64,000 nucleotides of DNA from Chrysomallon squamiferum (GCA_012295275.1 CM022670.1:25668001-25732000), one strand, 5' to 3'; shown: positions 17,481-41,649, counted from the stretch's first letter. The notes: generated by a model from the letters alone, not told the origin. Translations and numbers: made by a program.

Positions 17481-20400
17481 TTAATACAAAAGTCCGAAAT
17501 TTGCATTTGTTCTAAAACCATTCTGAGATTTTCCAAAGCGAAAAGATGGCGACTGAAACCCACCTAGAAGATTCGCGGAACCGAATGATGAGGGCCTTCC
17601 ACCAGTGCTACCTCCAGTGCTACCTCCAGTTTGTCCGTGTTTGTCTCCCCAAAACGAAGTCAAACCGAAAGGCTGGAATGAACCAAATGTGCTTCCTTGA
17701 TTATTTCCACCATAGGTTCTTTTCCCAATGCTACCAAACCCGGTCCCTGCAGCCGCTCCGGTTTGGAGGCCGTATCCAGATCCAGTGTTTCTTCTTGTGC
17801 CACCTCCATAACTATTTCGTCCTCGTTGGAAAGATGAACCTCTTCCTGTACCGTAACCAGTGTTTGTCGCAGCTGCTGCGTGTCCACCGCCTTTGTGTCC
17901 ACCTCCTAGACCTGCTCCTACACCCACTGCTCCTCCACTGTGCAAATCATTTCCAAGTCCTACCCCAAGTTGCGCACCACGGCTTGCACCGCTGTGAAAT
18001 GAATTGCCTAACAAATTGTTTCCTCCAATGCCGCCGAGACTGCCACCGCCGTTACCTGTGTTTTGCTGATCCCGTGCTGAGGACAGGGTGTGACTGTTGG
18101 CATTGACAAAATTAGAGCCTAAAGCTTTGTCATGCAAGTCCTGTTCCTTTCTTTGAACATTATCCTTTTCTTCCGCAAAGGTCTGTTGGGCAATAGCTTT
18201 CTTGTGTCCTGCTCCATATGCCTGTTCTTTGGCTGCGTTCGCTGCATCTTTATGAGAAGTGCCCAAAGCGTTTTTATGTTGTTTGTTTAATTGGAAACCA
18301 TTTGATGATTTTCTGATATCATCATACCCGTCCTTCCTAGATGCCTGATTATGTTTCTGAGAAGAGTGAGCTTTCTGGAATTGATTCTTATGTTGCTTTT
18401 CTGCAGCCTGTGTCTGTCCAAATTCATTTTCGATTCTTTTTCTGTTGTACAGAAGTCTTTCAATGTTGTTACCTCCGGATTTCTTGTCATGGTAGAATTG
18501 CTTTCGTTTTCTGAAGTTTTCATTTGAATCTTGCAGCCTCTTTTTAAAGTTTTCTTTATCGAAGGATGCTTCATCAAAATCATGTTTTGCTGCTTTGGCA
18601 TTGGAATGAGCAGCGGCATCTGCAAGCTTTTTATCTCCGCCACTAGCGGTTTTGGCTGCTTGCCCTTGTTTTGAATTATATCCTTTGTTTTCTGCACTGT
18701 GAACACCCTGGGCAAATTTACCATTTCTCTGATCTTTAAGACTCTTGATCTGGGCGAAATCGATCTTATTCTTTGATCTGAGGAAATCTTGCAGACGTGA
18801 ATCAACAGCTCCAGCTTTTTCAGCATCATGCAGTTTAGAAGCATCAACTTGTCGAGCATTCTCTCCATACTTGTGATTACTCAAACCGCCGCTTCCCTCG
18901 CCGTGAGTTCCTGCACCTCGTCCACCACTAATAGCACCATGTCCTCCATTGTTTCCATAACCAACGGTTCCACTGTTATGACCTCCATCATTTCCATGGC
19001 CTCCATAGTATTTCTTATCAGCATGCAATTGATCTCCGGCGTGACTAGCAGCGGCTTGACGTCCAGCAACTTTGTCTTTGTTATTGAAATGATGTTTCTG
19101 AGATATCGCCTTTTGCCTTCCTTTGTCTTCAGCAGAGAATTTGCTGTCTTTCCTGTCAAACTGGACGGCTTGGGCATCTTGAGTAGCGCCTGCTTTGTCG
19201 AGATTTTTGTCTGATTTTCCATAGGCTCCAGCTTGAACATGCTTCTGTGCTGCTTTCTGGCGATAGTTACTTTCTTTCAAAGCTCTCTGTGCGTCGTCGC
19301 GTGCATTAGCTGCTGTGTGGTCTCCTCGGAGGATCTTTCTGGCTTTTTGCTTATCGCGGAATTCATCGAGTTTGTGGGCATTGTGACCGTTTTCTTCTTC
19401 GAATCCACCTCTTTCACTCAGGTTTTGGTCGAATTTCTTGTTAAATGCATAATCAATTTTGTCGTTGAAGACTTTGCCTCTATTGTAAGCTTTCTTGTTA
19501 GCTGCAGCAGCATTGTAACCCTGGGCTCGGTTGTTATCTTTTTTGTCATACCTGCCGACGGAGTTAGAATGATAACCTCTCTGCTTTGCTGCTGATGCAA
19601 TCTGATTGGCAATTTGAGAAAATCGCCCTTCCTGTTGCTTGAATGCCTGGTCTGCAGTGTTAGCCTGCTGATGAGCTTTTCCTTGTTTGTTCCCAAAATC
19701 GCTGGCCTGTGCGTTGTTTTTATTTCCAAACTGATAGTGACGAAGTGCTTGTCCATCAAATCGCCTGAAATCTCTCAAAGCTTTGGTGGATCCTTTCTTG
19801 CCTTGAAGAAAATCACTCTGCCTGAATGCCTCTCTACCATTAGTTCTTCCTGCATTTCCATACTGGTTAATGTTTGTACCATATCCTTCTGCCACCACGC
19901 TGGCGACGAAAAAAGCCACGGCTACGGCAAACTGAGGGACCTACAAACATATATTCAGAGAATGACTAGCTCTTTCTTTTTATTCATTTGTGTATTCTAT
20001 TCTATTCTCTTTGTCTTCTAATTATTTTATTTTAAAGAAGTTATGAACATTAGCAAACTTCTAAATGTATTTTTTCTTCTTTTGTATTAAATACATATCG
20101 AACGTATTAAACTTATTTATTTATCTTTTTTATTTTATATAAAGAAATTACGATAAAGTGTATCATTTAAATCAATTCTTCGCAACAGCAAAGGAAATCA
20201 GTAAAAGAAAAATAATTTTAAATATATGTTGCTATTCATTTTATTTTAATCGAGATATAGGTTACAATCCTTACCTCTCAAGTTTAAAAATGTAAAGACT
20301 AACAATAACATAAAGTAAAATATTTACAACTCGTTCTCAATTTATTTTTTCACCTTATAGTAGTAGTAAAGTGGTCCTGAACGTTTGCGTTTAAAATAGA

Positions 20401-20781
20401 AAGGAAAACCATTTATAGCCAATACTTACTATATAATAAATATTTCTGAATTAAAAACCATGGTGAAGAAATTATTTTAAATATATTGCTTAGTGTGTTT
20501 AATAGTATATAATTTACCATAATAATAAAGCAACACTAAACAAAATCACAGATAAATTTAAATATGTGTAATAAACTGTAAAATTTTTAAAATATTAATC
20601 AGTTAATTATTAATATAATATTAATGATAATAATATTAATAAGAAGATGAAGAAAAAGAAGTACAATAAAAAGGACCTTCATCAACGTTATCAGTGATTC
20701 TATTTTATTTCTATTTCAATCTAAATAAGTTTCAAAAATCTTTTAACATAAAATAAATAAATAAACTTGAATTACCTTCAT
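17481..20781 (-). CDS. Secreted Gly/Ala/Lys/Gln/Asn/Phe-rich structural protein, paralogue A (~821 aa), divergent member of the 4-gene family
   Basis: Exon 1 ATG AAG|GT at 20781-20776; exon 2 19940-17481 (TAG acceptor, 820 codons including stop). Signal peptide MKVPQFAVAVAFFVASVVA; TATAAAA at 20872-20866; AATAAA at 17396-17391. Confidence 0.9.
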
Positions 20782-39003: not shown

Positions 39004-41649
39004 TTAATGGAAGCCATAATAGCCGCCATTGTACCCGCCGCGGTATCCACCATTACCATTATAACCATTAAATCCTTGCCCGCCAAATCCACGGCCATTA
39101 AAACCACGTCCGCCAAATCCACGTCCAATTCCAGCATAGCCGTTGTTATATCCATAACCATGTGCCAAGCCAGTTCCTACGACCCCTCGGTGAGCTCCAG
39201 CAAATCCTAATCCATGTCCAATACCAGCAATTCCAGCTCCATGTCCAACACCTCCGATTCCAACACCGCGTCCGAAACCATTTCCAATTCCAACTCCTAC
39301 GCTAGGTGCATGTCTGGCCTGATGCACTGCATGGGAGCCTGCATTCTTGTAGGATCGAGCATCTTTTCCGTAATGATGGGCAGCATAATCGTTCAAACCT
39401 TTGCTGTTGGCAGCGCTTTTGTATCCGGCGTTGTGGTGTTTGGCATTTGCATTGTCGTGGTTGTAATGTTTGGAAGCAGCATTTTTGTTGTCGTGGTAGT
39501 AATTCTGTCTGGCAGCATCCCCGGCTTGAGCTTGTTTATGACTGTTGTGTTTATAAGCTTGCTGGGCATGATTCTGAGAAGATTTGTCATTGTTGTGGGC
39601 CTGTGCCTGATGCTTGTTTTGATACAAACTTTGATGGTACCGTTTTGCAGCTCCGTTTTGATGATGTGCCTGGGTTCCAAATTGGTCATTGTATTTCTTC
39701 CTGTTGTAGTTGAGGTTTTCGTAGTTGTTTCCTCCAGCATTGTTGGAATGATGGAACTTTTTGTAAACCTTGTGGTTGCTGGCTTTGTCGTGATAGACAC
39801 GTTTCAGATTATTGGCGCTGTGTTTGTCTTGATAGAGATCATGATTAGCGGCGGCAGCAGCATATCCAGAAAGAGCATCAGCGGCTTTGTGTGCGTACCC
39901 TTTGGTGTTAGCAGCAGCAGCTGCAGCATCATGATGGAAAGCGTTGTTGTGAGCAGAACCATCGTTGGCTTTGAAGTGGCTGGCATCGTGACCGTTGTTG
40001 TATTTGTTCTCATGGTAGGCAGCGTTTACTTTATCGTTAAGATGGTCGTTGGTTTTAAGTCCATATTTGCCTGCTCTGTGTGAGTCATGGTTGGCAGCTG
40101 TTCCATACTGAGATGCAGCTTTTCCGTAACCTCCATAAGCAGCACCTCGGCCTGCAAGGCCGTGACCTTTACCGTATGGTCTGTATCCAGCGCCGTAGCC
40201 GCGACCCCCGTGAAGACGAGCATAATCGTGAGCATCCTGAGCAGCAGATCTTGCTGCAGACTTCCTACTAAGTGCAGCATCGCGTGCGGCGAAATCGTCG
40301 TATTTGTTGGCGTGAGCATCATGAGCTTGATCGTGGTATTTACTGCTTCCGGCATCATGTCCGTATTTGGCATCATAAGCCCGACTTCCAGCTCCTGCTT
40401 TAGCATTGTGAGCAGCATTGGCGCCATATTTACCATCATTGTAATGTTTCTTGGCTGCGAGATTTCCATATTTGCTGTCCTTCAGTGCGTGAGCTCGGTT
40501 GCTGTTGTGACGTTTTTGGGCGTGGTCTCCGTATTTTCGGTTGCCTGCATCATGATGATCTCTGTAGTCATCCAGACTGTGCTGATCGTTGTGTTCGTTG
40601 ATGACGTAGTCTCCGTTATCGTTGGCATGTTTGTTGTATTTCTTGTTAAAGCCATATTTGACACCATCGTTGTAAACGTCACCCTTTCTGTAGTAGCTAT
40701 TCTTGTTGTATTTAGAATTAGCTGCGGTTTTGTCAGCACCGTCTTTGCGGTTGAAAGCAGCTTGATCTCCATCGTGGTATCTAGCATAATTCTGGTGTGC
40801 AGCAGCGTTTTTCCCGTAGTCGGAGACTCCGGCAGCTTTGTGACCGTAATGATTGGCTGCAGCGTTATTCTTTGAATTAGCTCCATGGGCAGCGTTGGAG
40901 TACTGGCCTTCTCTGTCTGCGTAGTAACCACCGTTGACGTTGTATCTGTTTCCATGTGCATTGTGTGCTCCATATACACGTCTGCCATTATCTAGACCAT
41001 AGTTATTTCCTCCGTAGTTATGATGACCATAGGCAGCTCCAGCATTTCCGTAACCATCACCAACATGCCCAACAAGATAGCTGCTGGCAGCGGCTGCGAC
41101 ACAGACAAAAGCGACAGCGGCAAAAAGACCCTGTACAAAAACAATTTAGTAGAATTATGTTTGTTATTAATTATATTAAAATAGCAAGCAGTAAATGAAT
41201 AAAAAGAACGAAATAATCTTTTATATCAGTAAAAAATATATTTTTAAGAAATTAATAATAATAATAATGATGATAATAATAATAAAAATAAAAATAATAA
41301 TAATAATAATAATAAGAAGAAGAAGAAGAAGAAGAAGAAGAATTCACTTCACATGCAGAACTACAATGTACCATGAAGCTATATCATTGCTTAAAGTTTA
41401 TGTTTAAAAGGATTTTATTTTAAAACAGATTTCATTTGTACCAATAAACGATGTCTTCTATCCACTTTTATGAAATATTATTGTTGTGGTTATCAAATGT
41501 ATTATTATTATTATTATTATTATTATTATTATTATTATTATTATTATTATTACTACTACTACTACTACTATTATTAAACAGATAACGAAAACAAACCAAA
41601 TAAGACAATATATTCTGACATTCTTATTTTCTATACTTCTTACCTTCAT
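39004..41649 (-). CDS. Secreted His/Tyr/Gly/Asn-rich structural protein, paralogue D (~710 aa)
   Basis: Exon 1 ATG AAG|GTAAG at 41649-41644; exon 2 41130-39004 (709 codons including stop; the ORF track shows only the last 207 aa because no in-frame start codon precedes it). Signal peptide MKGLFAAVAFVCVAAAAS; TATAAG at 41721-41716; closely homologous to paralogue C. Confidence 0.92.

Follow-up and report, generated by a model that had tools for sequence, protein, structure and literature searches.

The closest described counterparts among secreted proteins with β structure in the final material are the β-sheet silks and the dreissenid byssus precursors, which are rich in Ala, Gly, and Asn and which, in the accessible part of the source, are either repetitive or coiled-coil proteins of 354 to 467 kDa (PMC10691215). 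The molluscan matrix proteins Has-tsfgr1 and Has-vm2 have a signal peptide and Gly/Tyr/Leu-rich repeats; they are 114 to 319 amino acids (aa) long and repetitive, and gap-free paired arms are not described in the part of that paper available to us (PMC2034539). Here, we describe four genes, A to D, in a 64,000-nucleotide stretch of the genome of the snail Chrysomallon squamiferum (GCA_012295275.1, CM022670.1:25668001-25732000; the whole stretch is called the window below). Their predicted-secreted products have tails that resemble those repeats and, like the silk and byssus precursors, are proposed to be β in the final state, but the core of this snail family is nonrepetitive, about 500 residues long, and built on one antiparallel register. 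The core consists of two arms of about 250 residues each, separated by a Gly/Tyr-rich hinge, which very probably pair with each other as antiparallel β strands.

The arms are gap-free. Residues are numbered on P0002 (the exon 2 product of gene B), in which arm 1 spans residues 47 to 297 (~251 residues) and arm 2 spans residues 341 to 589 (~248 residues). In an alignment of 24 full-length family members, 23 have an arm 1 free of gaps and 2 (P0027 and P0030) carry internal indels in arm 2, with 3 further rows differing at the last column only; the exceptions look like partial or mis-spliced models. A 14-residue gap present in arm 2 of A in small alignments vanishes with 24 rows. Identity in the arms is 15 to 25% for the distant rows (A and B are 22% identical in each arm), and the hinge ranges from 28 to 147 aa (18 aa in the broken row P0035). 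When pairs below 30% identity (172 and 178 pairs) were slid against each other, shift 0 had the top mean score in 14 of 14 alignment windows and was the best shift in 30 to 100% of the pairs, compared with ~6% expected by chance, which confirms the arm register without recourse to the aligner. The feature is genuine and well outside what chance would give. An earlier note on this DNA, which had seen register at low identity between A and C, is thereby upheld for the family; the offsets between these two proteins are constant (+5 in arm 1 and +19 in arm 2), while its exact counts of 133 and 129 aa from motif to hinge were not reproduced and depend on where the hinge boundary is drawn. As the note had also claimed, Pro in the window proteins is confined to the signal peptide, hinge, or tail, and Cys is confined to the signal peptides, so that the mature chains have none; across the family, 35,279 arm residues contain 2 Pro and 0 Cys. 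Tandem repeats are found in the tails only, and the two arms are not copies of one another.

Pairing between the arms was assessed by totaling pair measures along each diagonal and anti-diagonal of the arm 1 by arm 2 matrix (421 anti-diagonals), with z values that are descriptive and are not probabilities, the rows being related and their effective number 21 to 32. With 40 rows (P0035 was dropped as frame broken), the anti-diagonal i + j = 634 reached a z of 10.3 for charge, 10.0 for charge covariance, and 9.3 for mutual information, followed by 636 (7.7, 6.7, and 8.3, respectively) and, for charge, 632 (4.4); parallel and intra-arm diagonals gave no comparable signal. An analysis of 68 rows, with the conserved motifs left out and with 7 rows that were broken or chimeric removed along with every row covering a single arm, gave a charge z of 7.6 at 634 and 4.5 at 636, and mutual information of 11.0 and 8.9. 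In these 68 rows the signal is found at the sums 632, 634, 636, and 638 only, the odd sums from 629 to 639 are all negative for charge, all seven heptad phases are positive, and coupling within the arms peaks at lag 2. Even-only spacing is the geometry of antiparallel β strands, not of helices, and the inter-arm pattern read in this way is β and not helical. The anti-diagonal stripe and the single fold-back at the hinge that the earlier note had proposed were thus found, with even-only flanks and over the full length; its alternative of a four-stranded ribbon with turns at the motifs was not sustained, as there is no intra-arm stripe (the best, at 340, had a z of 3.4 to 3.6 for charge only and was absent in mutual information) and the motifs pair together. 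The conserved motifs face one another (G173 with F461 and aromatic 165 with G469), which makes them the center of the pairing and not turns. The ~251 pairs correspond to an extended length of 83 to 85 nm, somewhat below the ~270 residues and order of 90 nm first suggested.

The signal also belongs to individual chains. In 21 gap-free proteins, all 10 blocks and either parity were positive at 634, and matching the two arms of one protein gave a score of 29.2, versus 14.3 for mixed arms, with the own partner ranking top in 13 of the 21. Of 13 newly found proteins that carry both motifs, 11 had the predicted register at rank 1 and 2 had it at rank 2 in an alignment-free scan (the other 13 of the 26 new proteins had no motif match and were unscored). 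Using position-free pair scores learned from other members, the held-out proteins A, B, C, D, P0005, and P0014 each ranked the register and parity first of 1800, with scores of 9.6 to 26.6 compared with 3.1 to 7.5 for the best of 20 block shuffles. For gene A, charge alone suffices (score, 39; shuffle maximum, 15 ± 2.3; 0 of 100 shuffles as high); neighboring Gly-rich open reading frames (ORFs), which have few charges, gave no anti-diagonal signal. Five kinds of pair are enriched: Asp-His, Asp-Arg, Glu-Arg, aromatic-Gly, and Ala-Ala.

The second register, 636, repeats pair types of the first with opposite parity. Aromatic-Gly pairs are enriched 4.5-fold at odd positions of 634 and 3.4-fold at even positions of 636 (13 and 12 column pairs, respectively), and Asp-His pairs are enriched 4.9-fold at even positions of 634 and 3.0-fold at odd positions of 636. 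The swap statistic over 78 pair types was 0.28 (bootstrap, 0.08 to 0.39), a value reached by 0 of 66 control pairs of diagonals without the motifs and by 1 of 66 with them. When scores were learned at 634 only, swapped parity gave the better fit to 636 in all 8 held-out proteins (mean z, 4.0 versus 1.3), and these scores did not fit at 632 or 638. In an antiparallel sheet, a residue that is hydrogen bonded to one neighboring strand is non-hydrogen bonded to the other; aromatic-Gly pairs favor hydrogen-bonded sites and Asp-His pairs non-hydrogen-bonded sites, although the swap test is independent of this preference. The parity swap is as predicted for pairing at the opposite edge, whereas a two-residue register slip would retain parity. 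This suggests that both edges of each strand are used, with the arms alternating in a staggered sheet or barrel. When obligate heteropairing between the two sequence types of the family described below was considered, type I arm 1 with type II arm 2 peaked at 636 (z, 3.3), whereas the reciprocal combination did not (z, 0.9).

Gene structure, gap-free arms, the exclusion of Pro and Cys, the two registers, and their pair types are read directly in the sequence; taken as a whole, they make it likely that each chain forms a single antiparallel hairpin of ~83 to 85 nm that probably assembles edge to edge with its neighbors by hydrogen bonding, likely as a structural fiber or sheet. After secretion, the chain would fold back at the Gly/Tyr hinge so that residue i of arm 1 lies opposite residue 634 − i of arm 2. 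In this view the nonrepetitive sequence specifies a single register, like an address, by means of Asp-Arg, Glu-Arg, Asp-His, and Ala-Ala pairs and of aromatic residues lying over Gly. Such an address, a step that we regard as highly probable, would account for the purging of indels and Pro while identity drifted to 15 to 25%. The free edge of each strand would then pair at 636 with the other arm of a neighbor, so that arm 1 and arm 2 strands alternate; with a two-residue shift per hairpin, the sheet would be slanted or would close into a barrel whose shear equals the strand number and whose axial length is ~67 nm. We lean only slightly toward this edge-to-edge step. Gly/Tyr/His-rich segments are cross-link sites in sclerotized invertebrate matrices, and it is an even call whether the hinges and tails, located at the hairpin ends in this model, act as flexible spacers and as sites of tanning or metal cross-linking. 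Put together in its fullest form, as a pan-gastropod nanotube or staggered sheet of sequence-addressed hairpins of ~250 pairs (67 to 85 nm), with both edges separately coded, two gene types adjacent to each other from before the limpet split, and an operculum-like fiber as the product, the proposal falls a little short of an even chance.

Several observations weigh against this reading. For B, C, and D, which are poor in charges, the charge signal alone does not reach significance (12, 9, and 20 of 100 shuffles as high, respectively), individual column pairs give little signal (634 or 636 holds 9 of the top 60 in the 68-row set), and the sequence fits arm-swapped pairing between identical chains as well as an intramolecular hairpin. 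At 636, Glu-Arg and aliphatic pairs are not parity swapped, and Asp-Arg is not mirrored. The two faces, moreover, differ little in composition, which a narrow barrel would not predict (small residues make up 38% versus 28% by face in the inner half and are equal in the outer half). These last points bear on a less probable but serious alternative, in which the hairpin is an isolated, strongly twisted two-stranded ribbon, a monomeric rod joined to others through tails and hinges, and 636 reflects diagonal side-chain contacts. A right-handed twist entails i/j + 2 diagonal contacts within one hairpin, according to the accessible part of its description (PMC10096425), and could by itself yield the second register. 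The similarly polar faces would suit such a ribbon, and a turn every 14 residues would match the 2.33- and 14-residue periods of the arms. It is harder to reconcile with the recurrence of the 634 pair types at 636 with swapped parity in all 8 held-out proteins, with a swap that, away from the motifs, is seen in two different pair types, and with the aggregation that would be expected of an 80-nm ribbon with two free edges. As a separate observation, 3.5- and 2.33-residue periods in aromatic and long residues are seen in the arms across the family, and intervals of 14, 18, and 26 recur between aromatic-Gly pairs.

A further group of observations that count against β hairpins concerns helices. 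In both AlphaFold models, the arms are largely helices (predicted local distance difference test [pLDDT], 49; predicted template modeling score, ~0.2), the arms contain few β-branched residues (Val, Ile, and Thr together make up 5.3%) and 17% Ala, and they show an unexplained 3.5-residue period, in arm 1, and a lag-14 autocorrelation. AlphaFold, which the earlier note had put forward as a check, did not yield the fold-back; strands appear only at the motifs in both models, where the strand ranges, though not observed contacts, have end-to-end sums of 634 and 636 and so agree with the two registers. An antiparallel α-helical coiled-coil hairpin of ~35 nm, with a short β insert at the motifs, could be read from the long helices and from the alignment of the second model as an antiparallel helical hairpin, but as the final state it is improbable, since it would need sums differing by 3, 4, and 7, and these in some heptad phases only, whereas even sums in all seven phases are seen; the Gly-aromatic cross pairs and a model confidence below 50 also speak against it. 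A two-state protein, helical or unfolded in the secretory granules and converted to the β hairpin upon secretion by pH, salt, metal, or shear, is compatible with our preferred reading and is a minority possibility that we take more seriously. Helix-friendly composition and modest i + 3/i + 4 charge complementarity (z, 1.8 to 3.0) favor it, the Asp-His cross pairs might sense pH, and Asn-rich Dreissena precursors convert from α to β in the accessible part of their description (PMC10691215); the 3.5-residue period, however, is clear in arm 1 only. That the proteins are intrinsically disordered, low-complexity matrix components whose register is an alignment artifact could be argued from the low complexity, the lack of a Pfam domain, the low pLDDT, and database names such as "filaggrin-2-like." This reading is hardly tenable given arms that are gap-free and almost without Pro across gastropods, and it is contradicted by the alignment-free signal in the single sequence of A, the scan of new proteins, and the held-out register ranking, in agreement with the earlier note's view that these are not disordered proteins. 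Other candidates were rejected: no DNA inverted repeat lies between the arms that could produce the anti-diagonal, no clear diagonal points to parallel pairing of the arms or to arm duplication, and the absence of tandem repeats from the arms excludes a repetitive β-silk core. A Foldseek search with the low-confidence model gave 0 matches, VIA-align gave only generic helical pairs (Z < 8) and is not used as evidence, and predicting a complex between the central parts of arms 1 and 2 of A gave no answer either way (score, 0.00, with the alignment unused and the controls not folded).

Homologues were found by a profile search of 1.84 billion representatives (39 matches) and by a motif search (41 matches). 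All matches with a source name are from gastropods, from limpets to sea slugs (Lottia, Patella, Haliotis, Gigantopelta, Nucella, Littorina, Batillaria, Pomacea, Aplysia, Elysia, and Plakobranchus); about half of the 39 profile matches are without a looked-up or recorded source name. The nearest named relatives are those of the vent snail Gigantopelta aegis, with 72 to 98% identity per block between A and P0060 and 46 to 78% between B and P0005. Among the named matches, none is from bivalves, chitons, cephalopods, or freshwater or land pulmonates, in searches that were word limited and left many matches unnamed. A quick tree of 38 rows, a careful tree search being unfinished, divides the family into type I (A, Lottia 238001, Haliotis, Aplysia, and Nucella 28225 and 28226) and type II (B, C, D, Lottia 238000, and Nucella 28227). 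Since locus numbers of the two types run consecutively in both Lottia and Nucella, a mixed cluster probably predates the living gastropods. In accord with the earlier note, which recognized no named family, Pfam gave nothing meaningful for the 4 window proteins (E ≤ 1) or for the 41 members (E ≤ 5), and the family profile had 0 matches in a PDB sequence search at an E of ≤1. A metagenome scan with A gave 301 pattern matches, of which 0 were confirmed. Literature searches by DUF4779, by Lottia, Aplysia, and Pomacea accessions, and by topic words did not find a description of the family, with subscription journals and bioRxiv supplements outside their scope, and a look-up of motifs and identifiers in the supplements of PMC11871041, PMC6007483, PMC6368272, PMC13425148, and PMC9263180, whose sequence content is uncertain, gave no true match.

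Signal peptides, Gly/Tyr/His-rich hinges and tails, and tandem expansion make a secreted structural material the probable function. Limpets and abalone are broadcast spawners, and Elysia and Plakobranchus are shell-less; because members occur in all of these, an egg capsule or the adult shell as the sole tissue was judged unlikely. The same distribution, taken with the groups missing among the named matches, would fit a secreted hard part common to veliger-forming gastropods, such as the operculum, adult or larval, which the taxon pattern makes our single best guess, although a speculative one. Abalone veligers bear an operculum according to the part of the source at hand (PMC2034539). The radula, the periostracum, and pedal secretions are open alternatives.

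The coordinates of the four genes, their parts, and other features of the window are given in Table 1. All four genes are intact, lie on the minus strand, and have two coding exons that translate without internal stops; in each, a first coding exon of 6 nucleotides (ATG followed by AAG or AGG) is separated by a GT..AG intron from one long exon, and the N terminus is hydrophobic and signal peptide-like. For gene A, the acceptor at 19940 is preferred to an in-frame alternative at 19931 because the Gigantopelta orthologue P0060 likewise has VPQF. Gene B is covered by an independent run, X1, with 10 substitutions and 0 indels in the coding exon; the kind of run is not on record, and the X1 contig passes through the intron as DNA would. 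Exon B had no coverage in three RNA runs with the same organism code, a result that is uninformative about expression. At the DNA level, C and D are 89 to 100% identical in arm 2 and 51 to 92% in arm 1, and gene conversion confined to arm 2 is possible.

Table 1. Positions in the window of genes A to D, their parts, and neighboring features
Feature	Position	Strand	Remarks
Gene A exon 1 (Met-Lys)	20776..20781	-	TATA-like box at ~20872
Gene A exon 2	17481..19940	-	Type I, Lys/Asp/Gln-rich, 821 aa
A arm 1	19035..19787	-	251 aa
A hinge	18858..19034	-	59 aa, 34% Gly
A arm 2	18114..18857	-	248 aa; presumed antiparallel partner of A arm 1
Gene B exon 1 (Met-Arg)	27865..27870	-	Orthologue P0005 begins MRGLFAA
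Gene B exon 2	24685..26646	-	Type II, His/Tyr-rich, 655 aa; Gly/Tyr tail
B arm 1	25756-26508	-	
B hinge	25627-25755	-	
B arm 2	24883-25626	-	
Gene C exon 1 (Met-Lys)	34185..34190	-	
Gene C exon 2	31222..33834	-	Type II, 872 aa
C arm 1	32953-33705	-	
C hinge	32818-32952	-	
C arm 2	32074-32817	-	
C tail		-	Gly/His, 283 aa; 18-aa repeat, 7.8 copies (31470-31891)
Gene D exon 1 (Met-Lys)	41644..41649	-	
Gene D exon 2	39004..41130	-	Type II, recent paralogue of C, 710 aa
D arm 1	40240-40992	-	
D hinge	40117-40239	-	
D arm 2	39373-40116	-	
Tandem duplication	17078-17377		150 bp, directly downstream of gene A
Inverted repeat	29422-29691		270 bp, between genes B and C
Multi-exon protease gene	~2900-13440	+	Frame shift near 13000
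Gene E	50657-53464	-	Candidate exon 1 at 54753; ~940 aa
Gene F	57165 and 57754-60707	+	17-aa repeat, 18.5 copies (59434-60376); frame shifts near 57950 and near 59050-59110
Short ORF	63513-63854	+	~110 aa, signal peptide-like start

The window is AT-rich animal DNA with numerous microsatellites. The inverted repeat between genes B and C is imperfect (87%) and resembles a miniature inverted-repeat transposable element. Gene E encodes a Gly/Asn/Ile-rich, predicted-secreted protein and shares the tiny first exon of genes A to D; it has no Pfam match and no anti-diagonal signal. In gene F, a signal peptide is followed by Gly/Asn/Gln-rich sequence, and its frame shifts reflect either assembly error or a pseudogene. 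The multi-exon gene has CUB-like and Ig-like exons (identified by eye) and a terminal trypsin domain (Pfam, 9e-29); the frame shift in its protease exon suggests indel errors in the assembly.

In the sources searched, the architecture proposed here, a structure inferred from sequence, has no described counterpart, and a hairpin of ~250 pairs would be, to our knowledge, several times longer than any in a solved structure. If the proposal is correct, a single β-hairpin of this size, with its register set by a nonrepetitive complementarity code, exists across the main gastropod lineages and was missed by AlphaFold and Pfam; it would be a natural data set for the rules of cross-strand pairing, a template for designing long β-rods or tubes of fixed length, and a candidate for the fiber of a hard part in gastropods, for example, the operculum. 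The contact list, i with 634 − i and with 636 − i, is a directly testable prediction, and the single-sequence anti-diagonal scan is applicable to other "low-complexity" secreted proteins, with DUF4779 first. These arthropod His-rich secreted proteins (PF16009) are similar to the window proteins in Gly/His/Lys/Asp composition, and DUF4779 clusters are the nearest in the Atlas by features for B (score, 0.79 to 0.80), which is a lead only, with no usable Atlas match for A. The loose likeness noted earlier stands at the level of composition and features. The DUF4779 clusters are 238 to 354 aa long compared with 655 to 872 aa for the window proteins, 0 of the 41 motif matches are PF16009 proteins, and the literature search found no paper naming DUF4779.

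Two comparisons concern the pairing itself. The stems of pore formers of the α-hemolysin and aerolysin types are ~10 nm long and have a hydrophobic membrane belt and globular heads. The snail arms differ from them in having ~250 pairs, polar residues on both faces, no head, no PDB match, and no sign of a toxin; as proposed for the snail family, however, the stem hairpins adjoin at their edges, with a shift of two residues from one protomer to the next, which gives two registers differing by 2. The Gly-Tyr mortise-tenon of outer-membrane proteins is a local motif of small membrane barrels and implies no family kinship; what it has in common with the snail arms is an aromatic ring placed over Gly on the adjacent strand, a known β-barrel motif that locks the register in the accessible part of its description (PMC5542473).

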